Below are positions 15,369 to 64,000 of a stretch of DNA of 64,000 bases, one piece after another. The translations under genes were made by a program, and so were the position numbers. The stretch is taken from positions 3,348,001 to 3,412,000 of the forward strand of contig OZ260663.1 of assembly GCA_965285935.1 (NCBI GenBank), read 5' to 3'. Each line of letters starts with the position of its first letter. Within the stretch, counting starts at the first letter, position 1. Source of the DNA: Ophelia neglecta. Its lineage: Eukaryota. Below the pieces are notes generated by a model, which worked only from the letters and a program-made list of their open reading frames with translations, made no database searches and was not told the DNA's origin.

Positions 15369-15400
15369 TTAGCAAATCGCCCATCTTGATACCATAGAAG

Positions 15401-18530: not shown

Positions 18531-18687
18531 TAAAAGGTACGCCGTGATGAAAGGTACGCTGATTGCCGTGATAAAAGATACGCCTGTGATAAAACGTATG
18601 CTTTTCAGCGCATCTTTTGCCACGCGTGATAAAACATACGTCTCGCGAGAAAAACCTTATTTTCGCTCAGGCGTACCTTTTACAACA
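18531..18687. repeat. Repetitive TIR-like fragment with a Ginger-like ...ACAACA end
   Basis: About five copies of (G)ATAAAAGGTACGC variants, plus an inverted GGCGTACCTTTTACAACA (reverse complement TGTTGTAAAAGGTACGCC). Confidence 0.45.
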
Positions 18688-21600
18688 GGCTGTGGAATTA
18701 CGTACGCTGGAAGCAGGCGTGTTATATCGAACAGGTCGATTCATTCAGCTGTATATACGCAGCAAGTGCTATTTTTTGTGTGCTGCGCTTGTTTCCTGTT
18801 CCGTGTGATGGCGTTTAACGAAGGTGTATTTCCTACGTAAAATGGTTAAGCTCCGGGTAAAGCTATAGAAATTTGTGTGTTATAATCTTAGACAACACAC
18901 GCCATTGGAGAAAAACATTTACTGCGGTGGTACAGCATAAAGTATTTTTTTTTAAAATTTCAAATGTTCTAATTATTGCTATTTCCAAAGGACGGTTTAC
19001 TACGGTTGCGCATTATTAGATACACCGGGTCATTACCAGCGGGCAACAATATAGTAAAAAAGATGTATTATCGTAAAAAAGTTTAGTGGCCTTGCTAGAA
19101 AAGTCCCCTGCTCGAAACGACCTGGGACCCTTCTTTTGAGCCATCTGGATTGATGAAACGGTAGGGTATTTTATTCTATAGTTCATCTCACGATCTTAGT
19201 ACAATGCCTGTGATATATTATCAACATTTATAAACTGTTTGTATCATTCACTTATTTATAATTTTTTCTCTAATTTCAGATAAATAAAAATAAAACAAAT
19301 ATCTGTGCAATTACCTCCCGAAACACATGTATAACTGCCTCCTCCCCCCCCCCCCCCCCCCAAGGTTCTAGCTGTGTGATGGGCTCAGGGGGCTGTTCTG
19401 AATCGGCAGAAGCGCGAACGGCGAACGCGGACCTCCAAAATTTGTAGCATTATGGTAACGGCCTATGGTAACTGCTACAGCGAATCGCTCACATCCTGCA
19501 CAGCTGGATTAGTCTGGAAGTTGAAATAATCACACCTTGAATGACAACTAATTGCAGGCCTCGAAATAATTTGTTAAAAGCTTGGCAGCATTATTTCCGT
19601 AATCGATAACCACCGGCACAACCAAAGCGGGATTGCCCAAATCGGCCACGGACAAAATCAGCCATGTCGACACTATATATATGTTTCTATTTGCGGCAGC
19701 TAGGCCTGAGTCGGTAGTGATTAAGGGATTAAAATTTCTATCCAAATTCGACCCACAAAAGTTAAATGATTAAGGGTTTATAATAATTATGGGTGACAAA
19801 TCATCGGGGGTGAGGGGATCCATCCAATACTTGATGGCACCACCTGTTCTGATTGGGGCTTACGAAATTATTAACATTAATTAACTGTATTTGGGGAAGG
19901 AGAAATGTGGCACCATCAGGTAGATATGAAATATGCAATCCCATAGTGGTCCAATTATTTTTAGTGGTAATCGCATGCCTAATAATGCAGCTTCATCAAT
20001 CATCATTTAGGGGGTTAATTAGTGATTTGATACAAGAAGGATTTTAGGGGGAAAGTCTTCTTGACCCCCCCCCCATCCATCAAATCACTAGCCCATCCCT
20101 GCTGGTTTTAGCGACTAGCCCCCCCCCCCCCCCCCCTACTTCATTAATGTGATTAATTTCCAGTCAGTGATTGCTTGATAATTTCGTGGCAGTCCGCACT
20201 GTCATTACATGATAGGCCTCCTATATTATTTGTCAATGCCAGAGATTACAAGTCCCCCATCTTCGAGTGCCATACGTAGTCGCCGTACATACTTATTTTA
20301 TTTCTATTATCTGAGTTTAGAAAGCAATATGACATGGGAATGAGCAGTAATATATATATATATTTTAAATTCTCGCGATCTATCTGGCGGTAAAATGACC
20401 ACAAGTTAGTTTTTACGCCCTCCAAGACCAAAACAACGTGTCCCGCCATGTTTGGTGTTGCATACGTAGCGTGACACTCCACGGCAGATTATCCTCAATG
20501 TGTCACCACATTGCTTGATCAATGAATCAACCTTTTTTTGCCCGTCAGAAACCCAATCATGCTTCTAGTGCACTGTAAACTGGGGCTAGTCTTTGATTGA
20601 AAACTTTTTACATTACATGTATGATGCCTACGAAGCAGGCCTATTATATCAAATATGTCAATTAGCTACCAGTTTGTGAGGGGGGGGGTCTATATGCACT
20701 TGTCACCTTTCTTGTTCCTTTTTGTGATAAGGGAATAAAATAACACTATAGGTATATTTTTTACTTTTATTTATTACAATTTTCACCTTATCAAAGTGAA
20801 TGTCAAACATTTCAATCCGCTTGCCATACTATTACTACACAGATGCTGCCAGGTCACATCACTACTTTTTGTTTAAAATACATTCTATAAAGTTTTGGAA
20901 CAGCATATTAAAAAAACAACTTAAATAACACATAATTGAGCACAATTATGTGTAACACATAATTGAGCACAATTATCTGTCATTTGTCATGTATCAAGTA
21001 TTAGCTTTCTGTTTCTTGAAATGTAATACCAACCTTATTGCTCTTGTTTGGTCCGTATCCCGTGCTGTCGTCACTAGTCTCAAAAACAAGGTAGTCATTG
21101 AACCTCTGTTGAATAACATAAACATAAATCATGGGCAAATTATATTCTTTCCACAACTATTCCACATTAAAAAAAGTTCAAGACAATGTTTTACAGCTTG
21201 ATACATGACTTCTCAAACAGTAAGTCAAAAAGGCTTTTTTTAGATTATGTCATGTTTGAAAAAAAATTATGTAGCCTGCGGTAGGCCTATATATTAAGCA
21301 CATGAGGCATTTAATGTTACCTTTTTCATTACAATACAAGTGTGAATTTACCTTGTCATTTGCTTTAGGGTTTCTTTTAGGGTATCTTTTTTCTGTTTCC
21401 TTGATTCCATGGTGAAATAAAGACAGCAGATTATGTTACTGAAATTTGTGTACCATTTTATTTTTTCAATTTATCTAGTTTTTATGGTTTTGGTCTACTA
21501 TATATATAACTTTGCAGCAAGCCTGTTTTGACCTCCAGATTTTACAAATAACTAATATGCAAATTCTAGCATTACTGACATACAGATCTAAATGTGCCTT

Positions 21601-21959
21601 TACCTGGGTTGCTTTGCCATAATTATGGTCTTCTGATTGTGATAACATAAACTCTTCTGTTTTATAGAAAAGAAGATCTATATATCTGTTAAGAATGTTC
21701 ATGCCAAGTACAATAAGACGGCCTTTATCAATCAATCCATGGATGAAGAAAACACCTTATAATATACAGTTCCTATCAATGTTGACCCATTGTAAAGCAT
21801 CATTTAGAGCATCTGCCCAAAACTTGATTTGAAGGGTTTCTCGGCTTTTAACACGATGTATACATAACAGGGCCACACATTTGGGGAGAAGTCACAATTT
21901 TATCCATTCGACCATTCCCTTTTTAGTACCATATGCTTTATTACAAATGGACTACTTTT

Positions 21960-23894
21960 ACATGTTTTAGGCAATTATCTCTCCAAGGATACAGCCTTCC
22001 CTGTTCGCAAGGTCTTCAGCTTCACTAGCTGAAACAGCACGCCCTGTCATTCCATCTAGTAAGATCCTATGAAAAAAATCGAATTTTTTATTGTTAAAAC
22101 TTTGATTGGAAGTAAGTTGTATATTAATGCAATAAATCTCATGGTGTAAATCCATTTACATAATTCATTTACCATGTGTTATCTTCAAAGCAGAGGTTCC
22201 TGTAATGTGAATTGCCTTACAGGCAGCCTGCGTACAACACAAAAAGGTCTCCCATGTTGCCAGTTAAAAATTCCTCTGAGAAGCACATGGTCTTGCTCAG
22301 TTTAAGGTTAGGATCTTTTACTCTGGATTTGATGTCAATTACTATAAATTCTCCAACCTCAAACGTGAAACGCTGGTCATAAGTTGTCTACATATGTAAA
22401 AAGATAGGTTTGATGACAAATGAATAGTACAAGGCAACTGAGAGAAGTGTAAGAACTGATAGGGTTGCCTTTTGATGGAAGGCATATTATTTCAAAAGGG
22501 CCAATAAAATTTGAGCAGTTTTGTAATGAGAAACAAGAATTTTAAATCTTCCAGGCCCTGCTGATAACTTCAACACCGGAGTCCACAGGGGCAATATACC
22601 TAGGTGTCTCATGTTAAATACACTTTTTGATTAATTGACTACACTAAACTAAAAGTACAACCCATTGGCCAATTATGGTTGTGCCCATTCATACATCCTT
22701 ATAAAAGAACTGTTTATTTATTAACGATACCTCAGTTTGTTGGTCGAAATATCTTGGTCCCTCCATTGACTTCAGAATTGCTTCTCCGACCTCGGTGCCT
22801 TCTTTGTCTGCCACCACTTGGTGTGTCAAAAAAGCTGAATTGCCAGAGTGAATGAAGTTCGAACCAAGTTATTTTTATTTCTGGGCATGACTGCATTACC
22901 TTATGGCTACCTGCATGTGTGATTGGTATCTGAGATTAGTTTTACCACCATAAAGTTTGTAACAGTTAAAACTATTATATTGAAATTGCCATAATGAATG
23001 GTACTTGAAAGATTTAATTGCTTAGAATATTGACTTTATCTTTAGGTGATGTTTATGAATGCCTTCTACGTTATAATCTATTGAATAGCCTTCAGCAATC
23101 ATACATGACATGTTGACCACCTTCTCAGCACAGGGATATTTTGCAACATCCCTCACAAATGTCTTGCTTATTCCTGCATGCAAATGTATGTGACTGTCAT
23201 AGAAAGATAAAGTAAGCAATTTGTTCTGTCATGTACATATTAATTAATTAATTCTTTCTCAGAATGCATAATACTTTACTAATACACCATAACCTGTTCT
23301 GACTTCCTCTATTTCAAGAAGTAGGTTTTGTATAATTTTCTGGTAAGGTTCCCCATGCATCTTGAAATTCAGCAGTTGCTTAATCTATAGCTTTCAGGAT
23401 GTTGCTCACTTGGCCCATGTACAGTTCTTTGAAAACCTGAAAATAATTAATTATTCAAGATTTTAGTTTTGTTAAAATTTGTTTTTTTTGTGTTGGTTTA
23501 CATTAACATTTATGTAACAAAAATGTTGTATGCATCCCTAATTATTATGCAAGTACTAGTAGCAAGAAATGACACTCAAATGCCATACACTGATTATATT
23601 TTAAGGAATTTATCACTTATTTGAGTGTCATGACTACCTTAAAATTACAGGTAATTGAATTGAACAGGGAAGTAATTTATAGGTCCTGGGTATAATAGCT
23701 ATTTTTTACCGCATTCTTCTGGTTGCCACTTTCTGTCATTTGGGCTGCCTTTATTAAATTTTTCATTTGGTGCCCGAGGTGGCCCACAGCAGCCTGACAA
23801 GTTCATGAAAATGATCTTGTCTCATGAGGATGTTCATGACAGCTGCCAAATAGCACTTCCCATTGTCGCTGGGGAATTTTGTCTTTTTTCTCCA
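21960..23894 (-). pseudogene. USP/C19-like cysteine peptidase domain (C-terminal part of the integrase gene)
   Basis: Exon 23894-23710 DNGKCYLAAVMNILM (Cys 23853-23855); exon 23436-23294 EFQDAW; exon 22387-22173 LFVLYAGCL*GNSHY...NT(W) (His 22205-22207); spliced in phase to exon from 22066 (W)ILLDG...GCIL. Confidence 0.6.
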
Positions 23895-24160: not shown

Positions 24161-25538
24161 TATTCACACATACAATTTGTTGGAATAACTCATTAGCAAA
24201 TATGCCTATAAAATGATAGGATTTGCTGTGTCACCTAGGTGCTGGTCTTGTGCATCGAACCTTAAATTTCTCGCTGCTACTTTCCTTGCATGTTGCCGTA
24301 CTGGAACCTGGAGTGTGTATTTCTATTATATATCAGTTTGCATTGTATTAAATGAACATAAACAAGTTTTTTTTATTAGAAACCTGCATAATCAAAACGA
24401 ACCCTGCATGACATATATCACATCACGTCATAGCTGTCAAAACACTTTTTGACAATGTCTGCCAACAGCATTCCTTAATAGCTAGCCTAAAAATGATAAA
24501 TCGGTACTACAAAATGTCATAAAATGCACATAAGTAAATGGCTAGATGGCTGATATCGCAAGGGTTGTGGAGCTGAGCACCAGCTCGGCACACAAACATA
24601 TTTTAATGTTCACAAAATGTAATAGATGTATAACATGTTAAAGCCATTTTTAAAATGTGAAGGTTTAAGGAACCTTCTTTCATCCTTTTTTATTGAACCA
24701 CTAACTTGATATATGTAGACGGTACAGTTGGCAATATACAAAATATACCCAACTTAAGACTTGAAACCACATAGTGCTTATGTGCCCTTAAGCTCTAAAA
24801 ATCGAACATTGCTGATTAGCAGCTTCCACTTGCAACAATTGGAAGCTTAAGGTCCCTTCATCATTTAACTGTTTCATTGATTAATAAAGGGTTGCTTTAC
24901 CTTTGAAAAAAATTCTTCTGCTCACCACAGAGTTAAGTAACTGTTTGGTTGTTCTAATTTTATTTTCTTCTACTAGTTCTAGTGGTGACAGGCGCAGTCT
25001 ACTACTTCCCACAACGTCAATTATTCGTACTGGCATATTCTTCATACTTGCTTTTGCTCTATCCCCTTACCAAAAACTGATGCATTGTTTGTGCATTGAT
25101 TTAGCATTGGATTGGTGGCATTTAAATGCAAAATAGCATTTAAATGCTTTTGTTTCAATGGTTTTGTTACTGGTGTGGATCAAGGCATTGAATTAGAAAA
25201 AGCATTGAAAGAGCATGTCCACGGAGCGAAATATTTAAAATAGCATTTAAATGCTTTCATTTCAATGCATTGAAATGCCAAATCAATGCCTTTATGTTAA
25301 TGAGGTATGCATTTCAATGCAGAAACAATGCTTACATTTCAATGCATTGAAATGCAGAAACAATGCTTATATTTCAATGCCAATTCAAGGCATTTATGAT
25401 AATGAGGTTTGCACTGTTTGGATTCAATGCAACATACCATGCTACGTATATATGGTATACATCGAAGTTTTATATAAAGTTCACCTTAGCAGTCAAAACG
25501 AAACACAAATAAAAGTTTGACATACCAAACAGGACCTT

Positions 25539-27550
25539 AACCACATCAAGGTAAGAACCCACTGTCTTAGTTTGGACCAGTCTTCTGCCCAGTATGAGGT
25601 TTCCAGTGAGTTCATACCTAGGGCTCTTCCTGGGTATAAAAAGAAGAGACTTGGCAGTGGGTTCTTACCTTGACGTGGTTGCCCAGCTTGTGCTTTACAA
25701 AACAGAACCCTCACTGACAGAGTTTATAAGGTTTATTAGTTACATGTTACAGACAAGTACATGGATGTATATGGAACTTTCTTTTATCTATTTATTAAAC
25801 AACTAACCTTTTATGTTCCTTTACTAACACATTTTAGTCAGAAAAACAGAATGACCCACATGGTGTCTATGTGTCGTTAAGCCCCAAAAATCCAAATCCA
25901 AATACAGACAAGTACATCAAACCAGATCATGATAACATGAAATTACAATTTCACTCATTGTTTCTTCTGGAGGGTTACCCTGGCATTTGTAATTTTGTTT
26001 TGGAAGATCACACGAATACTGCTGGGGTCCTCTTCAAACCCCAGCTATATTGCTTTGGCATGCATGAAATCTGAAATGACAATAATAAATCATACAAGTT
26101 GGATGTACATTGATTTCCTTCTGTGACTTGACAATATATAGAGGTCTATGTAACATGTGTGAAGAATCATTGTTCTGAAAGGAGTAAAAACTGGTTGATC
26201 GAATTAATATTGTTCATAGTTTCACTTAGTGACGGTTGGATATGGCTGTTCCAGAAATTGTCCTCAGGGTGGCGTGAGCAGCAACGACTTTGTTGTGCGG
26301 GATAGGGGGGTTAAATTGGAAAAAGCCTGTCCGGCACATTGGGGAAAAATGGAAAAGCCTATCCGGCGGACAGGGGTGTATTTGAAAAAGTGTGTCCAGG
26401 GTAGGGGGAGGGGTATAAAACAACTCATGGTGGTGATTGGTGCGAGGGTATAGCCTACTTATAGGTTCGAGTAAATCATTTGTGATGTGTCTAAGGGGCA
26501 GAATTACCGTTGTTAATTATTCCATATATTCTGTTGTTCGGTACACCGCTGACTGTGTTTCACTTGCACATCCATACATTCTCCAGCAAGAATATATTTG
26601 CGACTTTGTTCAATCACTAGTCAGTCATATATACCTTTACCCGGTGCGAACAAAACCCAAACACTGTCAAAGCAGCAATACGCAGTTCCGGCAGGGGCAG
26701 TACGATCTAAATTCAACTTTCTCACAGTTAAAACAAGTTGCCGCCCATCCCTCCCTAGGACAATTCTCTGGAACCGCCCTGATTCATAAAAGGAAATATC
26801 TTTTGAAATAGTTCATCTGCTTTCTACCTGTAACTGCACTTTTTTTCAGGACATCCAAGGAATCATTTGCTCCTTTAGAGAGAGCCAGTTCTTCTACTGA
26901 GAAGACTAAGCCTATCACCTTATTTAATAGATACCTAAAAAAATATTTGAAAAGTGTTGAAGACTGATGTATCAAAGAGACAGCAAAACTTGATTCAGCT
27001 TTTCTGGTTTAATTTGACTGTAGATCTAGTTGGAAGCGAAGTTGTGTAGCATATCACAAGCCCTTATGCATGTCAAATCACCACAAATATAATGAAGCAG
27101 TATGAAAATCTTACGCTCGCAACCGGTGATTTGGTATAATCTTTTACGGGTAAAGAGACATGATTATATTAACATTGATTCTTCAAATTATATTTAGGGC
27201 TGTTCCAGTAATTGTCCCCAGGGAAACTCTCCGGGATATGGGGGATGAATTGGAAAAGCCTGTCTGGGATATAGGGGGTAAATGCAAAACCCTGTCCGGC
27301 AGATGAGGGTGTATTTCAAATAGTGTCCGGGATAGGGCGAGGCTGGACTTTCAAACACATGTCTGGAAATCAGGGTTAAACCAACATATAATTTAGAATA
27401 GTCACGGTTGTTCTGTTTTGTAAAGCACAAGCTCGGCAACCACGTCAAGGTAAGAACCCACTGCCAAGTCTCTTCTTTTTATACCCAGGAAGAGCCCTAG
27501 GTATGAACTCACTGAAAACCTCAAACTGGGCAAAAGACTGGTCCAAACTA
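25539..27550. repeat. Inverted pair of a ~140-bp repeat (25568-25708 and 27410-27550); first copy has a local 26-bp inverted repeat
   Basis: The two copies are reverse complements with a few mismatches. AACCACATCAAGGTAAGAACCCACTG (25539-25564) is inverted at 25655-25680. Confidence 0.85.
25955..26934 (-). pseudogene. BEN-domain gene remnant carried by the CACTA element
   Basis: Exon 26934-26828 YLLNKVIGLVFSVEELALSKGANDSLDVLKKSAVT splices in phase 1 to exon 26070-25955 DFMHAKAI*LGFEEDPSSIRVIFQNKITNARVTLQKKQ*. Confidence 0.65.
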
Positions 27551-29646
27551 TGTTATTGAAGCAACTTAACTATTTTAGCACCCCACCCAGGCACAAAAGG
27601 CTGTGTAAAGCATATAATGAGTGATTGCGTAAGTTTTTGTTCAATCCACAGGACAATGTTCTGGCAAGAACAAATAGCCTAATGGTGTTTTTTCCCCTAG
27701 TATCAAAACGTTACTCCAACACTGGATGTATTATCATCCGAAAAGGGGCAAGTTTTTTGAGAAGGAATGTTTTATTGTTTTTGACTTTTTCACAGCAAAC
27801 AAAAACAACTGAGTCTCAGAACTCAAGTAAAGCTGACTTGCATCATAGTGGTGATAATGACTTGATTCAGAGTCACCTAATTTTTCCAAGCTGGTTTCCA
27901 TTCCTGCAGTCTACTCTGACATAATTATTCCCTCCATGAGGCAATAGTAACTTTTCCAATTGAAACTTTATTGCCTGTGCATTCTGTAACTGCATCTAAG
28001 CGGTAGCTTGTATATATAGGCCAACAATTTATTGAGTACTTGTATATTAATCATTAGTTAGTGGTCATTGGTTGAATAGATCTACAGCATTCTTTCTGAG
28101 GGCTTGAATTGGAAGGGTAAACTATCTATAGTTTCTCAAAATGAAGCTTTTTGCAATATAAAAAAGAATAACTTAGTAATTTTGAAATGGAAATTAATAC
28201 TGAACATATGGATTTAGTTTTTTCTTTCAACATCATGACAAGAAGTTTTTTCAAAATCACACCAGCAATATAAACTAGCTCTACAGAATCAATGCTTTGC
28301 TGATCAATCCAGGCCTTAATGTGAAAGCAGTTTATCCATGATTCCAGGAGCATTGTTTCCATCATCAAAACAATGCTTTCTGATATTTCAATGCTCATTC
28401 AATATATTTAAACCATTGATTTCATTAAAAAAAATGCCTTGAAATATTTCAATGCTCAATCAAGGCTTTTGAAACATTGATTTGGCATTTTAATGCTGTT
28501 AAAAGCATTTAAATGCCAAATCAATGCATTCTTTTTGGTAAGGGTCTCTATTTGGTACTTTATAATATCCTGTGTCTCCTTTTGAGATAACCTAAGCAGA
28601 ACAATACATATAAAAATATAATTTATTTCCTGTTTTGTGAAGTTCCAGGTGATTATTACTATTAATCTGTCTTGTCTGTGCTTCTTTCTTTTGTTCTGCA
28701 GTTTCCAGTCTTGTTGCCGCATTCTCTGCGTTGAAAACTGCTGCAGGCGTAACTTAGCTCCATACATTATGTGAATCCTCCCTTGAACAAAAAAAAACAT
28801 AATTCAGAAAGTGAAGTGTCTGGCAGGGTAATTATTGAAATATTTCTATATATACTTATTTATTTTTACCCCTGAAATTGGGATGATCATCAGTCTATTC
28901 ACGAAGGTGATTTGTACAATCATTTTCAATGGTGTACCAAACAAATTTCTACCCATTAAATGTTGGTTCTGGCCTGCCATCCACGAGGAGTTCCTCATAT
29001 ACACTGATATCTGGCTCCATGGTTCTTACATCCTTGCTCCTCTCAGCGGCTGGTTGCCACACTTCAATTGGAGCTAAATTTCTACCGCCTCCACTGAGGG
29101 AGGAGTGGATCCGGTTGCTGCAAGGTAGTAACTAAATGCAATTTGTATGAATCAGACTACCCCCCTCTTTGGCTATTCCATAAAATTTCCACATAATGCA
29201 AAATAATGTCAAGAGCAATGTACACGCCTTGTTTGGTAGCAATCAGATAAACTATGTGGAAAAATAAGTGTTAAATTTTGGAAATACCAAAGCTGACACA
29301 ATAAAATAGAAAAAGGGCAATAACTATATCAAATTTGGTATGATCAACATGGCTATCTACTGGACATGGCTGGCTAGCTGGGCTTCTGAGTTAGTCCGAG
29401 GGAATCCATTGAATTTAAAGTTTTATAACTGCCATCCAAGCCTAACATTATAGGTGAAATATTCTGTTGGATATCTGGAATGTACAAAATGGTTAATTTT
29501 TAAATAAGGTGGTGCTACAGAACATATTTTCTCAAATTTGTGGTGTCAGATAGGATATCATGGAGCGGCCATGTTGAATATATGGCCATGTGAACTCGTT
29601 CAATAGCTCTGGTTGGTACTTCGCCACAGTGATTCTAGCAAATTAG

Positions 29647-30465
29647 ATGGAAACTCCAGACATTGGTGCAGGGAAACGCCAAAGGAGCCAACTGACCCCG
29701 GATTCTGGTGACTCTCAAATAGGTCTCAACAAAATAAGAAAAAATTTAGAAATGTCTTCAGAAGCCGAAAGTCTACAGGTGAGCAGTCTGGACCTTAGCC
29801 CGGTGGAAGAAATTGTCTCCAGCCATGTAGAAAGTATGAAGAAACAACAAGACCAGTTCAGAGGTGAGATAATAGAAGCAGTTAAAAACCAAATACAGAA
29901 ACAATTAGATGTGCTGGAGAATAGAATAGTTACTTTGGAGCAGAGAAAGGATAACATTGAGAAAGAAAATGATAGATTGAATACAGAAGTTAAGACTCTG
30001 AAACAGAATGTGAAAGAGTTGATGTCAAAATCTATAGAGAACAACCAGTATTCAAGGAAAACAAATGTCAGAATTTTTGGTATGAAGGAACAGGAGGAAG
30101 AAAACTGCAAATCTGAGGTCCAGAAAGTATTTAAAAAGCTAAAAATAAAGAGTGGTGAAGAATGGATAGATGTGGCTCATAGAGTGGGCAAAATGCCAGG
30201 AGATGAATCAAATGAAAAACCAAGGGCTATGATAGTTAGAATGGTCAGTTTTGAATTGAAGGAGAAGGTTATGAAGTCCAGGAAAGAGCTGAAGGGAACT
30301 GAGGTGTCTATACAAGACGATATGTGCTGGGAATATATGAGATATATAGCCTATCTCAAGAAGAAAGAAGCAGTTCAGGATGTCTGGACATGGATGGGAA
30401 AGGTGTTTGTCAAATTGAAAAGCACCGGAAATAAAAAGAAGCTGAGGTATGGAGAAGAAATTTGA
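29647..30465 (+). CDS. L1/Tx1 ORF1 protein (coiled coil plus RRM/Transposase_22-like)
   Basis: 272-aa open ORF; NQYSRKTNVRIFG, IDVAHRVG, PRAMIVR, VSIQDD, WTWMGKVFVK. Confidence 0.9.
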   Translation: METPDIGAGKRQRSQLTPDSGDSQIGLNKIRKNLEMSSEAESLQVSSLDLSPVEEIVSSHVESMKKQQDQFRGEIIEAVKNQIQKQLDVLENRIVTLEQRKDNIEKENDRLNTEVKTLKQNVKELMSKSIENNQYSRKTNVRIFGMKEQEEENCKSEVQKVFKKLKIKSGEEWIDVAHRVGKMPGDESNEKPRAMIVRMVSFELKEKVMKSRKELKGTEVSIQDDMCWEYMRYIAYLKKKEAVQDVWTWMGKVFVKLKSTGNKKKLRYGEEI

Positions 30466-33400: not shown

Positions 33401-33565
33401 AATATAATTTACAAAAATGCCTGTAGCTGTGTTATAAATAATGGTTTCTTTTCTGAGTTTTTTACTCTGGGGAGGGGTTGAAGACAGGGGGACCCTCTAT
33501 CTCCATATTTGTTCTTACTAGCAATTGAGCCCTTGGCTCTAGCTATAAAGAGAGACAATAATATT

Positions 33566-34344: not shown

Positions 34345-34445
34345 TAAAGTTAAACTTCTTTTGTGATTGAAAACTGCTTCCAGGCATCCTACATGTGACA
34401 ACTTCAGTGATTCTGTGTTTTCAAGCTTCTTGTTGTACATTCACA

Positions 34446-43684: not shown

Positions 43685-43975
43685 GGGACGGACCATTAGA
43701 TATCTAGGGGGGGGGGGGGGCAGAGAACTTGGCTCTAGTTAGGAATTTTTTTTTCATGAATAAAGTTGACAGAAAATTTTTTTTCACCACAGAAACTGCC
43801 AGATTATTTTTTTCCTCTGTATGATATATTTTTTTACTTAAAAATAATAGGCAGATTATTTTTTTTTTATGTATTTTTCTGGCAGATTATTTATTTTTGA
43901 GAAAATCAAAGCCAGAAAATTTATTTTCATTTTTTTCTGCCCCCCCCCCCCCCTAGATATCTAATGGTCGGTCCC
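43685..43975. mobile_element. PIF/Harbinger-type MITE
   Basis: TTA TSD and ~40-bp TIR GGGAC(G/C)GACCATTAGATATCTAG(G)nCAGA. Sits immediately after the GTAA splice donor of an integrase exon. Confidence 0.9.
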
Positions 43976-49500: not shown

Positions 49501-49807
49501 CACTGTTGTTATCGTTATATTAAGATCAATTGTTCGTAATAAAATATCAAGACTATTTACTAGTATTTAGGTATCTGGAAATCTCAGTCTGTTAACCTGA
49601 TGAACATATCTATTTGTGATGTGTGGATATGCTTTAAAATGAGCAAATAAAAAAACAAAAACCTGTTACCATTGAACGATTTGGGGTCTTTTTATTCCAA
49701 AAAATGTTGACAGTATTCAGTAAAAATATTAACTAGATACAATTTGAAGCCTGTGAACATATTGGGCACAGCAAGGGATTTAGATTGGTGAAAGCACAGC
49801 ATACAAC

Positions 49808-50016
49808 GGCTTTGTGTAAACGGCGAAAGCAGCGAAAGCAGCATTTCACAATACTCTAAAAAATTAGTTATTTTATAACCCAACCCTAACCGTAACTCAA
49901 TTCTGTTTTTGATATAAATGGGTATGGGTAGGGTTATTATTGTGTTCATATTAGCTCAATTTAAGAAGCCATGCCGCTTTCGCCGAAGCTTTCGCGTTCG
50001 CCGTTTACACAAAGCC
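49808..50016. mobile_element. MITE with GGC...GCC termini, 8-bp TSD and telomere-like core
   Basis: TSD CATACAAC; 20-bp TIR GGCTTTGTGTAAACGGCGAA; internal AACCCAACCCTAACC and GGGTAGGGTTA. Confidence 0.9.
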
Positions 50017-50289
50017 CATACAACAGCTGTTGGCTGCATTAAATGAAACCAACTGACCAGAACTACACCACCTAGAAGTTTGTAGTCACGAAGGTGAGAT
50101 CCTCTCTACATGATCATGTGCATGAGCTATACATATAATAAAATGATCATAATCATTTTCATATACTACCGCAGGTTGTTACAAATTCACTCTTGACAAC
50201 ATTTATAGGCTACATGAACAAAAACCTTGACAAACTATTTGATATTCAACGTACATTTTAAGACTTGACAACAGATGCCTTCAAGTTGG

Positions 50290-52492: not shown

Positions 52493-53475
52493 ATGGGGCG
52501 AATAGATCTTGTTATATTTCTTTAAACATGGTCACGATAGTCAGTTAAGTCAGTTATCCAAGATTTACGTACTAGGCAGGTTAATTTTGGGTTACCATAA
52601 ACAGATTAATGCAAGGTTTTTGATTGGCCATGGCAGGACCATGGGTTATGGCATATTGATTTTCACAGTTTACCTTAATATATCCATGCACAAATGATGG
52701 CTACTAGTATTGCACTGTCAACTATTGCACATTTTAGTGAAATTTTCACTGTGTAGTATCTATACTAAACTATACTATAGCAGGGATTTCATTAAAAGGA
52801 GGTAACAGGAAAAATTTACCCGTTACAGGACATCATCTTACCTGCCGTTTAGGCCTGTTTTAGATACTTATTATAGTGTTTGTTCCAAAGGTTTCCTGTA
52901 ATATTTACCTCAAAATTGTTACCTGAAAAATTACTGAAATAGGCTATAGGGACTGGGCTAAACCTGTATTACACATGTCCTACGTACAATCATGGGTTAA
53001 TCAGTAACCTCTCATTTGGTCATGTACTAATAGTATGGTATTCATATATTCAGCCCAGGTGGACACACCCTTCACCACTGACTGTTCACCACTACCATGC
53101 ACAGGCTCTGGACAGCTGGAGTCTTGACTTACTCGTACTGAGCTGCACAACGTATAGCTATACATATTGCAGCGTATCTACTCGGTATTGAGAGCATGTG
53201 CACCTGCTTTTGACTGTATGGACTATGGTATAGTCTGTTAGCAGTCTGGTTATATTGGCATGTACCCTACCCATACCTGCCATGAGCCTTGTTGAACATG
53301 TGAATAATGTCATGTACCCAGCTACCATCGAAGTTTAGGAGCCCCTTAGTTAGATGTAATGAGGCCATTGGCAGTCTCATAGTAATGAACCAATTTATAA
53401 AGCATTAATTTAAGTAATTGTTGGTAGTACTTGTCTTTCAAACGCCTATCGTTCCGGCAGGATGCTACATTGCAG

Positions 53476-55554
53476 GTGGTCATGATTGACAGAGCGTCTT
53501 CAACAGTGCAGGGATTTCAAATCAAGGAAATACCTGCTTTGTAAATGTACTTTTACAAGTACTGAGGGCCTCAGATGTCCATGTGGCAGTTTCTGGACAC
53601 AGCATATGTAGGTATTAACAGTTGCGGATATAGATATAAGCAGAGAGTGTAAGCCGCTTTGATACTGATGAACATAAGTAAGATTACTAAAATCTTGTAA
53701 AGTGGTATTGATATATGTTGTTTTTGAACATGCCTTTTATAAAATAGAGTGGCAATGAAGGTTATCAATTTATTGGCACAATTGGTGGTACTATAAAATT
53801 ATTCCGTATTTATACAGGTAACATTGGACCTAACTGTTTGTTGTGTATTGTGCACAAATTCTTGTTTCACAACTCAGTAGATGTCCAAGAGTTGCTAACA
53901 GGTGGAGTATATTTTTCAGCAGACAGTAAACTTTCATTGCACTAAAAGTCTAAATCATAAACTTTATTTATATCTTAAAATATCACAAACAATATGTATG
54001 TTTATTACTGCATAAATCAACAATCATTGCTTACTGTATATGAATTGTTCTTCAGTCATATGAACAAACTTTATCATTGGTACTCAAGAGGATGCCAGCG
54101 AGCTTCTTATTTCTTTCGTTCACAAATTTGAAGATCAGATTGACGATCCCCTTTTTAGTTGGACTTGTATGGAGATAGGTTAGTTATAAATTCTGGGGGA
54201 CAAGGAATTTACAAGGGCTAATTATCTCAACCCTTATAATATATATTGGAACTGAAAAAAAAACCTACAAATTACATAAAGTTCAAAAAACCTTAGTATT
54301 CCATATGTTCAATGTATTTTTGTTTTCAGTCCAGTGCAACCACTGCCCTAGAATGAAAATTGAACCACTCCCTATGAGTGTTTTAATTGTACCAGCAGTA
54401 AGTATAGTATATTTTTATGTAATATATGGATGCATGAAAGGGCATCTGCATTTTGGAATTAGTTGGTGGATGGACCTGGTCTATTAAATTTGACCAAAAT
54501 GGAATGCAAAATTACCCCCTCCCCTCACCTACACACAAGCTCACCTACATGTACATCATAGACCACAAAACTAAGACAAGTAAATTTTGGCTTCAGAATA
54601 CAACTCTTGCTGAAGCAATTGATACATACTTTGCTCCAGAGAGCAGAGAGGAGACCGATGCCTGTATCGGGTGGGTATACTTTTAAAAACTGTTCTAACT
54701 ACATGATTAAGGAACCATTATGGACTACTTTATAGTTTCATATTCAATGACTAACCTCATATTTATATTGCAGCTATGGAAGATTTGATAGTAGAACGAA
54801 GTCAATTGCAATTAAAGATTTGCCCAGAAACTGGGTAATCCAATTTACAAGGCCAGTACCATGCAACGGCTTAAACAACAATTGGACTTACTTTATCACA
54901 TTTACCAACCAATATTGCTTCATTTCACAGGGAAGCTGACCAACTCATCTCTTTGGTCAAATACGATGAGTTAATACAAGTCATGGTAAACGATAAGGTG
55001 AGTTGAAGACATGTACATAGATAAAGGCAATTCATTATCGCAACAGGAATAGGTGCTTTTTTTTAATTGGTAACTAATCTATTTCTCACACAGTGAAGAT
55101 AAGGTGTTTTTATCATACCTTCTTTGAGACTGCAACAACACTTTTCCTTCTAGCTTGTGGAAATGGACCTTGCTGCAGTAATAGTGCACACTGGGGATCC
55201 CTGTGCAGGACACTACACTGCGTACACAAAATTGGGAGATGTATGGCAACATATGAATGACAGTTTGGTAAGTAAACCTGACAATGATATGGCAAAAACA
55301 AAATTTTTGTATTCAGTTAACTAGGAGTCAAACATACTGAGTGAAATCGCGCAGTGAAATCATAAAGCATGTTAAATCAAACATATACATGCACATTACA
55401 TTTAACAATACATAGCATAGATATTAGAGAAACTTATTTGGAATTTAAAATAGCATGATTATATATTTTTGTAATTATCTGATTTTATAGGTCAAGAAAG
55501 TAGATTGGTTAGAGGTGCAAAATTGTCCTGCCAACATCCTGCTTTACAGGAAAA
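53476..55554 (+). pseudogene. Ubiquitin-specific protease (C19, USP17/36/42-like) catalytic domain, about 9 exons
   Basis: Exons give D*QSVFNSAGISNQGNTCFVNVLLQ (Cys 53535-53537), HSICNIGPNCLLC, FIIGTQEDASELL, VQCNHC...VLIVP, TLAEAIDTYFAPE, IKDLPRNWVIQFTR, DLAAVIVHTGDPCAGHYTAY...WQHMNDS (55154-55267), VKKVDW...ANILLYRK. Two in-frame TGA codons; one donor is non-canonical. Confidence 0.88.
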
Positions 55555-55741: not shown

Positions 55742-58700
55742 AACATCTAGCTCAATCTGAAGAACCGCAGCCATGTGCCCTTCCAGCTGCCTTTCATCTT
55801 GAGGCTATGCCCTGCCAGGGATATGAGCCTCAAGAAGTAATTTCTTTATCTGCTGAAGCATTGACCCTGCCCTCTGAAGAGTCCATGTCTGCTTTGTCAT
55901 CTGACACTTCTCTAGTTGTTTATCAGACTTCAGAAAAGAACACAAAGTTTGTTCAGAACCAATACAAAATATAACAAAACATTACTTTAATATAAATAAT
56001 AATAAGAGCAGATGTAAATCAACTTGTATCTCTCTCTCTACATATATGTATACATATCGGGGAATATGGGAAAGATATATTTATGATTGCTTTTAATAGT
56101 TGGCATTTTGAAGGGTAAAATCATAGAATATTATATTGAAATACAATCTAAATCCAAAACTTCAATTCACAATAGAGTTCTTCAACTCCAATTTACCATT
56201 TTTGAATTCAACCTATACAAAAGTCATAACCAGGCAGTAATTAGCTTGAATCAATAGTGTATGCATGTTTCCTTTTTACAATTAAGTAATTGTTGGAAGG
56301 CAAGAGGGCACCTACAATTATTTGAGAATCAATTTTTAATTGCCATTTTCATATACAAAAGCATATAAGCCATTGCAAGTGACAGTGTCCAGGGTTCATT
56401 GGTAGAATGGGATGGTCAGCGTCATGAGCCAATGTATGTTGCTTAGCTGAAGCTAATGTCACGCTCAATAGAGATAGCTAATGACGCCAGACAACTTGGT
56501 GCGAGGCACATTTCATGTTAAAAATTCTGCGGGCATCGGATTTGGATTTTTGGGGCTTAACTTTGCGGGCATCGGATTTTGACACAAACTGGCCTGGTCT
56601 TTCTATGAAGGCCCACCAAGTCACCTGCAATGGATAATGTGAAAATGTATATTGATATTTGATTCTCCTGTAATTTTAGGTTGGATATATACATGATATT
56701 TTTAATGTTATTTTTCAGCACAAATAATGATAATAAGAGGAAGGCACATTCATTTGCAAAGGTAATTACATTGGAAATGCGAAAGCATATATACACTTTG
56801 ATATCATAAAATATATATCTAAAAGTTCTGCCTATGAACGCAAGAGCTAAGCTGATACATTATTACAAGGTTACCTACTTTTAAAATAGTAACCAGGGGC
56901 ATGGATTTCACCCAAAACACAATAAGTATTCTGGGCAATAAGCTTATGATTAAAGACCCTTTTACATCCTGTTTTGGCCATTTGTTACTTGCTTTAACTT
57001 CATTTCCAATTATATGGAAAGATAACATAATTCTACTTTTACAGCAAGACACAAACGAAAAAGTTCCTAAAAGGAAGATAGGTGAGAATAAATATCAAAA
57101 CTATTGTCATTGTCCTGTTCAATGCACTGTTACAAATTAGATATATAAATCTATTTAGGACAAAACCATTTTCAAAGAAAAATGTTTACACATGTTTCTT
57201 TGTAGTGACAGAAAGTCGACAGGGTTCAAGTGTAGAGGTGCTTCCAACAATGCCACCTTTGAAGGCAGCAGTGGTAAACCCATCACCTTTTCCTGCCATG
57301 TAAGGAGCATTTTACTTCAAATTCACTTACATGAATAAAGGAAATACTTCAAAGATATTATACGGTGGAGACATGGGCTGAAAGAATTCTACAAGATTAA
57401 ACAATAGTGGGGTTCTAAGTAACAGTTACATAAATCACTAATTAACAATTTTAAAGGGGAAACAGCACATAAAAACATACCAGAACCTGGCAAACAATTG
57501 GCCGAAATCATGTTTTTCAACTCCTTAAAGTTAATCATATAAAAAATATGCTCTGTATATCTGTCGGCCTGTTTAAATACTCAACACGATATTCTTTTTT
57601 TTACCGTTGGAAAGCAAGAGGGCACCCCCAATAGGTTTCTGATTGAAGTATTTGTAATCATATTTACTGTATAGTTTCAGTGATGAGGAAAATGAACTGG
57701 ATAAAATGTTTCAATCGTAACAAAGTGATTTGCACAGAAAAATTGGAGCACTGGAGGAAGGAGTCCCGATAACAATGGTAATTCATTGCTCAAATGCCAT
57801 TCTTAATATTCTTTCATGACTGGTAAAGGTAATTTAATAGGCATGGATAACATAAAGTAGCCAAGGATAAGAGGTTTTGAGCTAATTTATTACTGCATTG
57901 CAAATTATGCATAGGGTAGTAGACATGCCAGTTGAACAGACTAGCATTGTCTTATTGGATTTGTGCACAGTAAGATGTTAAGATGGGAGCATGTCTGTTT
58001 CAGATCAAAGAGTCGGTGCAAGAAGTAGATGCAATTTTGTTCAGGCATAAATTTGAAGAAGTGAAGTTAGTATTTTAATATGTTTGCATGTCTCATAATG
58101 TCCAAAATTTTATAATATAATAGCAAGCAAAGTTCTTTGAAATAGAAATCCCTCCTTGTATGGAACAGATTCCCCCCCCCCCCCTCCCCTCCACCTTTTC
58201 CTAATACATGTATTACATTTAAATATTAGAGGTGAATCAGTATACCGGTTTGTCAGGATAGATTGGTATTTAGTTACAATACAATAATATCGGTATTCAT
58301 ACAGAGTCAATACATTTGATACAGTGCACAAATTTTGGGTTGGCTATTAATTTTCACCTTAATTACAATGTTGATAATTTTGATCTTACATTTGCTGAAC
58401 TAAAAAGAATGGCGGTACTCTTGTGCAAAATAAGCTGGAAACACCTACCTGAACCAGTAGAGCTTTATCTTTGTTTCACCCAAAAGGTAACTGCATAGGA
58501 CATAATTTATGATGAATAAACCATTATTTGCGTAAACAACTAGATTTTAAGTAGCTCTGCTGGCCACATAGCCCAGAGGGACACCACTCAACAACAGTGG
58601 CCTTTCTACCAATAGTATAATTAAAAAACATGTTAGGAGTTAACAATGCAGCTCTGGTAGCTCCCTCAGCCCAAAATTTAAAAAAACTCTGCAATGATCC

Positions 58701-59730
58701 TTCAAAATAATCCTATGCCCCATATGCTGGTTGGTCAAAATATATCTTCTTTTTAGTGTCAACCATTGCCTTCTGATGAGAGGGCAAACTTTTTTTTTCA
58801 TTTTTTGCCTAAAGTTATAGTACAAAATGTGAATTAGCTCCATGATTATTTCTTTTTCAATTTGTTGTTTCCACAGAGTCTTCATCATGTCATGCAATAT
58901 TTAAAAGTGGAATTTTGTAGATACATCAGTTGCAGCAGGTATAATACATAGTTACCAAAGAAATAATGTGGTATATAAACTAATAAAACTAATAAGTCCA
59001 TGACACCCTCAAAATTAATTGCTAAAAACAATGGAAATAACTTAAAATGGTAAGAAAACAAAATACTTAATCTTGACATTTTCCTGATGGTCATATTTTT
59101 TTGATGATACGCTTTTTCTTTTGCATTATTTACTATGAAAACTTATTATTTTCAGATGTTTACCAAAAGTTACTTCAGGCTTTCTTTAAATAATAAAATA
59201 TATTTTTCCCAAAATGGATGCCTGAAATAGGACGACAGTAAGTGCCATTACAATTCTTAACAATACTATCTGAGGACTATTAGTAAATGCTGGAATGGAA
59301 AGGAAACAATTTGATAGTCAAAAGTGGAATGTAGTTGCTTCTATGCAATAGGCAATTCTCAAACAATTTATGGCTTTCCTTCTATACTTTTTGCCTATTA
59401 TCCTTTGCAAATGGTATGACAGCAACTGCTGTTATTCAAGTTACCAAACTAAAGGCAGAACATATGAAGCACTTCGCTAATTGGTTGGCTCGCCCTAGTT
59501 TGGAATCTGGGCAAGTAGGCCACATGAAGGGCAGTCCAGATTCAATATTTATTGGCCATGATGGAAGGCCACTCATACTGTGAACAACAATCAGAAACGA
59601 TGAATAATAAATCAGCTGTTTGGATTATGGTGTTATTTGTCGAGAAACCTCTGAGGTTGTTTTAAACAAAGGCTTTTGTGGTGTGTGTACTCCTAAATAT
59701 TATGACAGCAGCCATCAAATTGTCAGGTAC
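55742..59730 (+). pseudogene. Further decayed plus-strand exons, probably the C-terminal extension of the USP gene (domain unidentified)
   Basis: Run of short AG...GT-bounded segments at about 55742, 57045, 57206, 57675, 57915, 58004, 58325, 59156 and 59352; the first is phase-compatible with the last USP exon. Confidence 0.4.
56544..56563 (-). mobile_element. 20-bp SINE/LINE 3'-tail insertion with 16-bp TSD
   Basis: TGCGGGCATCGGATTT at 56528-56543 and 56564-56579. The insert is the reverse complement of the GTTAAGCCCCAAAAATCC tail also seen at ~25876-25903. Confidence 0.75.
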
Positions 59731-60359: not shown

Positions 60360-60499
60360 ACCATCACCTTTTTACGCCATACCAGAATAAAGTACTTTTA
60401 AGTAACTCCGGAATATTCATACCAGACGTGATCAAGATTGGAAACCTGATCTCCCACTTGCGAGGCGAACACTCAACCACTCCGCCACACTGTGGTGGT
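60360..60499 (-). mobile_element. tRNA-derived SINE remnant
   Basis: Minus strand has an A-box TGGCGGAGTGG, an anticodon-arm-like TTCGCCTCGCAAGTGGG and a degenerate B-box GGTTTCCAATC, followed by a non-tRNA body. Confidence 0.55.
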
Positions 60500-60831
60500 T
60501 TCAGATTACCATGGAATTACACGTCTTATACACTGAACTATAGCCAGCTATCATTTCAAATCATCTTTGTTCCTTTCTGAAACATCTGGGAGCGAAAAAA
60601 CGGCACTGACAACTTCCTGGAGGTCACAGCTTGAGCTCTATGACAGCCGTTACTTGATTTCCGTCCCCTCCTTCTATCCCATGAGGCAAAGGCCCCAAAA
60701 CAGCAGACAGCCAGCGTGACGTAGTCAGCAGTATTAAAAGAGAACTGTCATGTTGTACATGTCCCACGTTATTTGAACCATTGATCAAACACCTAAACAT
60801 ATCCTTCAGAAAAGAAACAAAATCCATTTAA

Positions 60832-61566
60832 GGAGGGTCACTGGGGTACCATTGGCAAAATGGGGGAAAATTTGGGGAAAAATTGAAACATCATACAGAA
60901 AGTTAAAACCAATACACAAATATTCGCCATTATTCCTTTCATGGGAATCGGCAAGAATTTGAAAATATTTGATTGTGCCGCACCCAAAAACAGACCTGTT
61001 CCCATGGTAACCTATACAAATAGCAAAATTAAAAAAATAAATAAAACGAAATATATCTAGAGTTTTTATGCACATTGCTTTGAAAAAAGTATCCCCATAT
61101 AGGCAACCAACTATTGTGCATCAAATATTATCATGACCTAATCTTGTCAAAGTCAAGGTCAAAGGTCAAAGGTCGCTGACTATCACAATTTCAATATTTT
61201 AACATTTGGGCAATGAATTTTGTTTAATACAGAAAAAATTAGTGCCGTAAGCCTATGAAAATTGTACATCATTTGAAAGATTAATATGTCTACAACAAAG
61301 TAAGAAGAAAAAATCAGACTTGTTGAATCTTTTTTAAGCAATTTCTGATCACTTTAAAACTATGGGGCCTATTTTCCCATATACTCCCATTATAAAACCT
61401 GCACTGAACCCCTATTTTCATGGAATTTTCAACAGGACACAGCAAAAAAACGAGGTCCGCTACCCATGTTTTTCTTTCCACATTTTCAATCTATCAAACA
61501 AGAGCTTCAAAAAAATGAAATAAAATATACATGTTTGACAAAAATTTTTTACCCCAGTGACCCTCC
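60832..61566. mobile_element. Kolobok-type MITE, 735 bp
   Basis: Perfect 17-bp TIR GGAGGGTCACTGGGGTA with TTAA TSD on both sides. Confidence 0.9.
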
Positions 61567-62077
61567 TTAATTTATATTCTGGGCCTACCCGCTAATTCTC
61601 TGGCGTGGTAGTGGAGGTACCATGACTATTAATTTACCATACCCATATGCCCAAGGTACCAGGGTACACGGGCCACGGACCCACAAACACTTGAATCTAT
61701 GGTGGACAGGGGGAAAGCAACAGTATATACACATATATATTCCCCTTGTATACAATATGGTTATCATGTTGTTTTGCCCCCTGTCGAGCACAGATTCAAG
61801 TGCGCGTGATCAGCACTGCTTTCTTTACCTTTTTACAAGCCAGCTTTACACAAATAGTTTGTTTTCTACAGGCATGGCCTGGTTCATGTGGTTCAACCCG
61901 CGTGTTCCAGTATCGCGCGCAAAGTCTCGGCCGACTTCAGATTGTCGTGAAAAAGACAATCTACTTGCCGTGAAAAATTGTAGAACCAGTGACCTGCATC
62001 CCTTATATAGTTTCCATTCAGACATGATAACATTATCCTTAAAATGATGCATGAACGCATGTCATTCCTAAAATATT

Positions 62078-62127
62078 AGCGAGCGCAAGCGAGCGGCCCC
62101 GAAGGGGCCGCTCGCGGAGCGAGCTCT
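62078..62127. other. Perfect GC-rich hairpin within GCGAGC repeats (possible rolling-circle element terminus)
   Basis: GCGAGCGGCCCC-GAA-GGGGCCGCTCGC (62089-62115), flanked by further GCGAGC units. Confidence 0.6.
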
Positions 62128-62974
62128 ATAGATAACGTGTATGCGTAGGGAGAAAGTGCATAAGAAATCTAAACAAACTATGTATAGAGATACCACAGTA
62201 CTCGAACCAACTTGGTTTCCTTGGTCAATATCCGGTAAAGTGGTAGCCACAGTAGTAGTATTTGAACGTAGTCGTGTTTGTAGTAGTACTTTTTGAAGCG
62301 GAATTTGTCAACTTTCAGGTAGTTGCGCAAATTACAATGTAAAAAATCGAAATAAGTCTAAGTGTACACTTAATTCCTCGTAAATAATACTTAATTACAT
62401 AACCTTATTTATTCGGGGAAAAAAAACACCACATCTAAGATTGTGAGAGCGAATTTTTAAATACGAATTTAAATTTGCAACTCCCGTTGTAGTCTCGTCT
62501 GCAATCCCGCAGATCTGAGGCCAGTTCCGTATGGATGGGTGCAAAAAAAAGTCAATCACTAGTAGTTGTTTCGATACCGGTTATCTTGTAATCAGGGTAT
62601 AGTATTGATCTTCATCAGGGTCAAATAAATTGAAAAACCCTAAAGCTCGTGAGCTGTGAGCGGCCTGTTCACTGGAAAACACGTGCAGGCCACAACGAGG
62701 CTACAATTGCGCGTCGTCTGCTTTGTTTACATCTGCTAGTCGGCTGAGCTGAACCCCGGACTGTTTCTGCTGCACAGGTAATGTAGTCTTGCAATTAATC
62801 AATGAACGTAACTCGATCTAGAAATAACTAATTGGTGAAACACCAGAATATTTCAAACCTAATATCTCGTTCCAATTAAATCCATGAAAATATTGGTACA
62901 TTTATTGAAATCTTCGTAGTGTTCAAGACCAGTCAATGTCAAGGCCACAACTGTCAAAACGCCAACTGACAGGC

Positions 62975-64000
62975 CTATCTGTTTTGGTTTGCTTTCTCTG
63001 CGCGTTAAGACTAGCAACGTTTTTCAGCCTAACATGTGCTACAAGTTCTCACACTCAGCAGAAGTTTTTCTTTAATTAATTTCTTTCTTGCAGCGTTATT
63101 CTTGAAGACCTGTTGTGTTTGAACTTTCTATACGTGTCTCTCAGGTAAGTTATCAATGGCAGGCTTCACAGCCGGTCCTACTTTTTATCCTTCCATGGGG
63201 AGAGTGAGTACTTACATTACTTGGGAGTACAATTGGACAACAAGTGAAGTGCTGAAGGGTATCTTTTTCAGGTTTCTCTCCTTTTAAGGAAATATTTTTC
63301 CTAAACCTTGCCATTTTGAAGGATATGCTAAAAGGGGGATTTCTCCTGGCAGGGTATTATGTCTATATTCTTAGGTTTGGGCGACCCAGTTAGTGTCGAG
63401 AATAAGCATGAGCATTTTTCGGCGAACAGGTGCCTTTTTATCTGCACACCATTACCATAATTTCAACTAAATACCCCATCCGGGCTTTTGCCACATGATT
63501 AGATGTGAAATGAATTATTATCATGAACATCATTTTCCAGTTCACTGTGTCAGTAGGACCAGCAGCAGAATTTCCATTTTTCTTCTTATATATCATTTTT
63601 TTTTAAATATAAAGGGTTTGAAAGCTGAAGCATACAATAATCACAATATATATCCTTCACAAAGTTTACAGATGAAGATTGGCATTTTTCTAAAACATGG
63701 CCTAATGAAAAGTGCACTGGAAAATAAAATTTATTAAGTGAAGATTTTATTCCTTCTTGTATCACTTCACTTTTCATTGTATAGTTAGTGGCTGACATTT
63801 TATCTGCAAAATACTTATGAGGAGGATATATTAATAATCCAAGTATATGCTATCCATTCCCTACTAGTTTTTCTTGATTTCTGTGTTGTATTAATTCTGC
63901 ATACCTAGTTGACTTTTCTGCAGGGTTTCCCATGCCTCTGAAAGCTATCTCTTGTCATTCAATGTCATTTTCTTTTATAGCACAAACGTTAATATAATGA
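62975..64000 (+). mobile_element. Inverted, coding-less paralogue of the Helentron flanks (runs off the window)
   Basis: 62975-63753 is the reverse complement of ~17754-18530, and 63752-64000 of ~9310-9631, joined at CC. Roughly 85-93% identical by eye. Confidence 0.9.

Follow-up and report, generated by a model that had tools for sequence, protein, structure and literature searches.

The locus described here lies in a stretch of 64,000 nucleotides of Ophelia neglecta DNA (contig OZ260663.1, positions 3,348,001 to 3,412,000 of the forward strand; hereafter the window), an AT-rich, animal-like sequence packed with transposons. Its principal features are an integrase gene on the minus strand, a gene for a ubiquitin-specific protease (USP) that runs the other way, and a pair of long inverted arms that bracket both (Table 1). 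An earlier examination of the sequence, referred to as the original prediction, had proposed that the two genes are the divergent pair of one large cut-and-paste transposon; the long inverted arms were absent from it and are new here. Together, these features may be the remains of a single giant element related to the Ginger transposons.

Two intron-rich genes on opposite strands

The minus-strand gene, which starts at about 45790, is an intron-rich H2C2-DDE integrase of at least 15 exons. Four of the 21 pieces scanned with Pfam belong to it, and two of these four matched integrase families (rve, E 2.6e-4 at 44252-44386; rve_3, E 0.046 at 43979-44161). The catalytic D, D and E motifs stand at 44650, 44296 and 44089, with all three acidic residues kept, and together with the Pfam matches they bear out the integrase gene that had been placed near 45.8 kb on this strand. 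In the H2C2 finger, the His pair and the first Cys are visible and the second Cys was not seen; relatives of the gene match Integrase_H2C2 at E 9.4e-5 and 0.0045. The N-terminal exon is frameshifted, and this exon, in which a YPYY motif would be sought, has no significant match even in the relatives (155 and 482 of 2000 shuffles). Beyond the catalytic exons, the first post-core exon extends the core across an intron filled by a long interspersed element (LINE), at a junction common to the relatives. Farther downstream, the stretch at the position of a GPY/F motif resembles that motif by eye, the letters GPY/F themselves being absent, and has no Pfam match. Neither an OTU nor an Ulp1 C-terminal domain was matched by Pfam in the integrase region or its pieces, and the six read-through frames of 18531-29650 gave a single chance match in a search that is insensitive to short exons.

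A profile search for relatives of the integrase returned eight proteins, five of which are exon-sized pieces with matching boundaries; of the 288 candidates from a metagenome scan, 34 were confirmed. Three of the 34 are members of the same lineage (L001, L002 and L004), all in one other assembly, on contigs whose sequence ahead of the integrase gene amounts to only 0.6-1.3 kb. Five exons are common to the window, L001 and L004, with junctions at identical codon positions, and L002 has only the Glu exon; a GGRFE motif is invariant in all six aligned relatives. Full-length homologues were found in none of the candidate sets (0 of 409, 0 of 10 and 0 of 8000). Donor types differ in one L004 intron and in one L001 intron, that of L001 being GC-AG, and at positions 4074-4643 of L004 the post-core exon is followed directly by the second tail half (see below), as if internally deleted.

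About 1 kb beyond the split exon lies a tail in which a Cys motif (23861), a QDA-like motif (23367), a CxxC motif (23157), a His motif (22213) and an Asp motif (22062) follow one another in what we take to be the USP layout. L004 reaches the second half of this tail, with its His and Asp exons, and in it, as in the window, the Trp codon that follows the His motif is split. With exon pieces chained by X, the C-terminal half of the tail aligns with L004 at Z 6.05, a score exceeded in none of 1000 shuffles, and the tail half of L004 aligns with the true USP of the window at Z 3.69 (1 of 1000 shuffles). Compared singly with the two L004 exons, the His exon of the window gave nothing significant (886 and 1667 of 2000 shuffles); the L004 tail pieces have no UCH match, and the L004 His exon has no PDB match. 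The tail is linked to a true USP by its motif order and, in alignments, only by way of L004; we regard it as a conserved part of the lineage that is probably a divergent USP, with a presumed USP fold. Its strand, order and spacing suggest that it is fused to the integrase in one protein, through a presumed exon chain between 24900 and 23894. An integrase lineage with a USP-like tail stands even if the locus should fail to represent a single element.

The plus-strand gene is a diverged, compact USP. Its Cys box (53526), QED (54085), CxxC (54335), His (55205) and Asn-Asp (55253) motifs give the catalytic order Cys-His-Asn/Asp, and UCH matches in Pfam to the Cys box (E 2.6e-4) and the His box (E 8.6e-6) uphold the USP gene that had been read on the plus strand from 53.5 kb. 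Its former description as USP17/36/42-like is only partly and weakly supported, since the nearest solved structure is USP36 for the His exon (E 0.002) but USP2 for the Cys exon, both matches being weak, and the QED exon has no USP match. The gene is so diverged that it is presumably not a conserved orthologue of a host USP36. Its start codon was not found and, of the head-to-head arrangement once described, it is thus the divergent orientation that holds.

Both genes show the dense short introns noted in the original prediction (95-301 nt in five minus-strand introns and 60-223 nt in eight plus-strand introns), as well as its scattered nonsense codons, which number 7 in the 669 modelled codons of the minus-strand gene and 2 in the 545 of the plus-strand gene. 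Both genes are broken, and this copy is dead. At a decay of 4.2% per copy, which is half of the divergence between the arms, 3.6 stops (0-8) would be expected in the minus-strand gene and 3.0 (0-7) in the plus-strand gene; the counts are compatible with genes that decayed about as much as the arms diverged. This is a weak test, and the exon pieces were chosen by eye, a bias that lowers stop counts and favours the shuffle tests.

Inverted arms enclosing both genes

The arms stand in inverted orientation on either side of the gene pair, are at least 1.1 kb long and are identical at 913 of 997 aligned bases (91.6%). The left arm may extend further left, the comparison ending at the right edge of the window; since the right arm runs off the window, the outer ends and a target-site duplication (TSD) are unreadable. 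Similarity between the arms ends at their inner edge, and a candidate inward extension was rejected (score 32 against 24-34 for shuffled sequence). The absence of any reading frame with a synonymous excess indicates that the arms diverged neutrally; coding constraint was rejected, as no frame supports it. An interpretation of the arms as a separate TGT-ended element was likewise discarded, the TGT being better explained as a remnant of the target duplication of a mini-element (see below). Once six inner insertions are removed, about 19.6 kb remain between the arms, or 21.8 kb with the visible arm parts, in good agreement with the figure of about 20 kb that had been given for the element without its younger insertions.

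For a dispersed repeat with 4-20 loci, the chance of pairing in inverted orientation within 60 kb is 0.0004-0.04 in assumed genomes of 0.3-1 Gb, a figure that covers dispersed copies and not local duplication. A short pair of terminal inverted repeats (TIRs) bounding either gene alone was sought in seven region pairs, none of which scored beyond the shuffled maximum. The arms are candidate TIRs of one element. Each arm also contains an outward-facing strong splice donor about 170 bp from its inner edge (63146, plus strand; 18356, minus strand), adjoining a CpG-rich patch. To the left of the left arm, plus-strand exon-like pieces with good splice sites and no meaningful Pfam match (7813-8729) could belong to the outer part of the arm or to a neighbouring gene.

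Contig depths were taken from three public runs of one other sample, which share 51-58% of sampled words with the window; summed contig depth does not equal copy number and is taken only as a hint of few loci. In run X1, where single contigs have depths of 50-72 and true repeats reach 23219, the right arm lies at 196-408 and the USP gene at 115-274, far below the true repeats and above single contigs, a hint that arms and USP gene are low-copy sequences present at few loci. One USP contig (depth 165) carries a 114-nt intron insertion that is absent from the window. Cys-rich, SWIM-like decayed frames without a Pfam match lie directly upstream of the USP Cys exon (53034-53380), in a bin with a raised depth of 418-480 in two runs.

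Nested insertions

The TIR fragment at 18531-18687, formerly put forward as a terminus of the large element, turns out to be a self-contained mini-element (18531-18684) with no partner on the right: all three matches to its end at up to 3 mismatches lie inside the mini-element itself, and the end was found in none of the 34 confirmed loci. The mini-element is preceded by ACA and followed by ACAG, and the right arm has a single ACAG at the matching place. It is probably a Ginger-type insertion with an ACAG 4-bp duplication that has lost 3 bp from its left end. Ginger1 targets include ACGG (PMC2836005; this and the other papers cited were covered in part), of which ACAG might be a decayed form.

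Between the two genes lies a transposon that we, like the original prediction, presume to be of the ISL2EU type. It is recognized by Pfam matches to YqaJ (E 2.7e-12), DDE_Tnp_4 (E 7.9e-21) and THAP (E 9.7e-5), and no recognizable ends were found for it between the genes. The exon-like pieces at 45800-47740 may be 5' exons either of this element or of the USP gene. A tiny, very-high-copy repeat occupies 49800-50020, between both ISL2EU genes, in a bin whose depth is the 23219 of run X1. A duplication between 46.9 and 52.8 kb was considered and rejected (150 against a shuffled range of 97.5-136, from only 8 shuffles of a loose alignment).

The Helitron-like insertion, 8.1 kb in length, has non-canonical ends with GG on both sides and contains an SGNH-like open reading frame (ORF; 10479-10964, by eye) and an internal 530-bp foldback (15114-15645). 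Within the nested element at 25064-28544, which we assume to be CMC/EnSpm-like, are an inverted pair of 141 bp at 97% identity (25568-25708 and 27410-27550) and Cys-rich coding pieces. The BEL/Pao retrotransposon is very young and has an open ORF of 2084 codons, and 47-59 loose contig ends fall at 60425, where the high-copy repeat insertion begins. Outside of the arms, at 1758-3756, a minus-strand LINE has its 3' kilobase twice in tandem at 99.8% identity, either because it was duplicated very recently or through an artefact of the assembly. Rfam returned no matches.

Table 1. Positions of the features in the window, with strand and the observations on which each is based
Feature	Position	Strand	Basis or remarks
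Left arm, outer visible part	9310..9631	+	89-90% inverted match to 63752-64000
Helitron-like insertion dividing left arm	9632..17753	-	OTU E 0.049, PIF1 E 0.017, both weak
Left arm, inner part	17754..18530	+	86.4% over 795 columns to 62980-63753
Ginger-type mini-element (probable), inner edge of left arm	18531..18684		Inverted ends; right arm is the empty site
More exon-like pieces, downstream of tail	21030..21965	-	By eye; one piece scanned, no Pfam match
USP-like tail	21965..23894	-	Motif order and comparison with L004
Exon with GD...GPY/F-position stretch, interrupted by 3.5-kb insertion	24901..28591	-	Same frame on both sides
Nested TIR element, 3481 bp	25064..28544		CCC...GGG ends, TC 2-bp duplication, subterminal repeats
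Two post-core exons	28660..29117	-	tblastn to L001 E 0.008, to L004 E 6e-4
LINE in integrase intron, 14 kb	29358..43538	+	Endonuclease, reverse transcriptase, zf-RVT; 11-12 bp target duplication
BEL/Pao retrotransposon inside LINE	33566..41621	+	ATATT duplication; long terminal repeats (LTRs) 99.6% identical
Miniature inverted-repeat transposable element in integrase intron	43685..43975		TTA duplication
Integrase gene, 5' part, six exons	43982..45790	-	N-terminal exon, two zinc-finger exons, three DDE exons
Plus-strand exon-like pieces	45800..47740	+	No Pfam match; loose end at 46068, 2 contigs
ISL2EU-type transposon core	47740..52720	SWIM-YqaJ +, THAP-DDE -	Pfam
USP catalytic domain, 9 exons	53462..55554	+	UCH matches and motif places
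More exon-like USP gene pieces	55742..59720	+	No Pfam match; one piece without atlas match
High-copy repeat insertion	60425..62300		Depth up to 9854; right end approximate
Right arm	62980..64000	-	Runs off window

One element or several

The reading that we tentatively prefer, at somewhat under an even chance, is that the locus represents a single Ginger-related element of giant size, now decayed, that had long TIRs and carried two modules of USP type. It gains from apparently low-copy inverted arms that enclose both genes, with similar decay in arms and genes, and from the lack of a shorter TIR pair around either gene alone. Further support comes from the exon layout common to L001 and L004 and the resemblance of the L004 tail to a true USP, from a plus-strand USP too diverged for a host USP36 orthologue, and from deubiquitinase add-ons being normal for Ginger1 (PMC2836005). 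The broader proposal of a previously undescribed, multi-species lineage of giant (more than 20 kb), intron-dense, long-TIR elements, with an H2C2 integrase outside Ginger1 and Ginger2 and two USP-class deubiquitinases on divergent genes, is more doubtful again.

If one element is indeed present, it would be a cut-and-paste unit, at least 22 kb in length without later insertions and bounded by TIRs of 1.1 kb or more. The product of one gene would be an H2C2-DDE integrase ending in a divergent USP-type protease, and that of the second, divergent gene a separate USP that has a long tail. Excision and reinsertion of the unit via its TIRs would fall to the integrase, and the proteases might deubiquitinate the integrase itself, chromatin or the repair factors present where the unit inserts, a role comparable to that suggested by Bao et al. 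for OTU and Ulp1 domains (PMC2836005).

A number of observations weigh against this. The depth of the integrase core is only 72-98, below that of the USP gene, with 156 at the integrase 5' end, and two contigs depart from the window sequence at 46068, so that the 46-47 kb region may also occur at another locus with no integrase gene beside it. None of the 15 listed contig joints (of 96) skips the ISL2EU element, and there is no clear twofold excess of arm depth over the flank directly inside the right arm (149-213). In L004 the exons that should separate the post-core exon from the second tail half are missing, and its Cys motif was not seen. None of the 19 pieces scanned had a UCH or other Pfam match at E<=10, the tail lacks a PDB match (for the His exon) or an atlas match, and in direct comparison with the plus-strand USP it reached only Z 0.18 (C-terminal half) and Z 1.44 (N-terminal half); the USP domain once assigned to the integrase is thus supported by its Cys, His and Asp motif order and by L004, but not by Pfam. 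TGT...ACA termini or a TSD were not found for the large unit, whose right arm leaves the window, and no Ginger-type terminus was recognized in the 9.4 kb left of the arm, which offer one candidate site. Described Ginger TIRs measure 40-297 bp (PMC2836005). The exon-like pieces at 7.8-8.6 kb, like the open frames within the arms, could indicate that the arms belong to another gene-bearing unit. The original idea of one large element is supported in part, by apparently low-copy arms, by similar decay in arms and genes and by the recurrence of the integrase with its USP-like tail in another assembly, and has lost its proposed terminus to a separate insertion.

A rival reading is nesting, in which an ordinary-sized Ginger-related integrase-USP-like transposon with eroded short TIRs lies inside a different low-copy, long-TIR element of Mutator or foldback type, the owner of the arms and of the plus-strand USP, which might itself be the tail of another transposase. 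Three observations suit such a host: the integrase core is less deeply covered than the USP gene and the right arm, contigs end loosely at 46068, and a SWIM-like stretch (by eye) lies at about 53190, directly upstream of the Cys exon. Against it, Pfam gave no Mutator-like element (MULE) or SWIM match upstream of the USP, neither TIR nor TSD was found for a separate integrase element, and internally deleted copies of a single unit could also explain why the depth increases from 72 to 156 as the 5' end of the integrase gene is approached. We judge nesting to be unlikely on balance, and find less credible still a chance neighbourhood of a dead integrase transposon and a duplicated, decaying host USP paralogue, with arms derived from a local inverted duplication or from two copies of a small repeat family. 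A window of 64 kb into which eight or more unrelated elements have inserted, a neutral arm divergence that fits any duplication and the exon-like pieces left of the arm are what such a neighbourhood has to offer, against a USP that is short and far from host USP36, arms that enclose exactly the gene pair and lose their similarity at the inner edge, and a low chance of pairing by dispersed copies, local duplication lying outside that figure.

Polintons typically have long TIRs, and a fragment of one, or of an endogenous large DNA virus, could in principle employ a Ginger-like integrase; we hold this to be very improbable. In its favour, intron-containing Ginger2-like integrases are known to mobilise crab nimaviruses of 265-285 kb (PMC10871703). 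Against it, families of polymerases, capsids or ATPases were not matched in the six frames of 18531-29650, within the sensitivity stated above, an H2C2 finger is present in the integrase, and none of the ten viral-contig candidates is related to it.

Comparison with known integrase transposons

The element would work in the manner of a Ginger, but the 2010 definitions of Ginger1 and Ginger2 do not accommodate its integrase: it departs from Ginger1 in size, TIRs, introns and domains, and from Ginger2 in size and TIRs. Ginger1 elements are 2.6-7 kb long, with TIRs of 40-270 bp ending in TGTNR, a 4-bp CCGG/CCGT TSD, 0-4 introns and one gene, which carries an OTU or Ulp1 domain (PMC2836005). The present integrase shares with them an H2C2 finger and DDE core, a C-terminal ubiquitin-type protease domain (here USP-like by motifs), introns and low copy. 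It differs in its core motifs, its 15 or more exons, its USP-like tail, the second gene and arms of more than 1 kb, and no TIR pair of Ginger1 size with TGTNR ends surrounds the integrase gene. Ginger2 elements, of 2.7-6.7 kb with TIRs of 45-297 bp and a 4-5 bp TSD, are without GPY/F and, in the parts of the source covered, have no reported protease domain (PMC2836005). The LQSDNG-like second Asp motif and a PR-x-P ahead of the Glu motif bring the integrase nearer to Ginger2/TDD (by eye, from eight passages of PMC10045372), whereas the integrase gene alone exceeds 2.7-6.7 kb without insertions and has no short TIR pair. The GGRFE motif was not found in the supplement of PMC10045372, where alignment gaps could hide it.

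Among larger units, the endogenous nimaviruses mobilised by Ginger2 (265-285 kb, 46-bp TIRs; PMC10871703) likewise combine an intron-containing Ginger-like integrase with a very large unit, here putative, but no viral genes were found at this locus. The integrases of Polintons have no H2C2 finger (PMC2836005), unlike the one described here, and the protein-primed polymerase, ATPase and capsid genes of Polintons were not found in 18531-29650 at the low sensitivity of that search. IS3EU/GingerRoot elements, which are integrase-related, reach 12.9 kb and capture gene fragments, lack the HHCC finger and have TA...TA ends, TIRs of 100-150 bp and a 6-bp TSD (PMC6839031, PMC10045372); the H2C2 finger upstream of the core sets the present integrase apart from them. 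USP (C19/UCH) domains are found on other transposons, namely Trichomonas XP_001314237 (PMC2836005) and HLE2 Helitrons (PMC11417382), which thus also bear a USP-class deubiquitinase, but on other transposase classes than an H2C2 integrase and, in the passages covered, with no divergent second USP gene. In the literature searched, which did not include Repbase or subscription papers, neither a USP domain nor a second gene is described for any Ginger, and a Repbase entry may exist.

Ginger elements, of which only small ones have been described, occupy a place between cut-and-paste transposons, LTR retrotransposons and Polintons. Because their exons are so short, elements of the kind proposed here escape both ORF-based and profile-based annotation. 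If real, a form of 20 kb with two genes and long TIRs would enlarge the Ginger group and show an integrase transposon growing by gene uptake. The USP tail would then be the third deubiquitinase class on such integrases, after OTU and Ulp1, strengthening the hypothesis that transposases have to undo host ubiquitin marks and providing a domain to assay.

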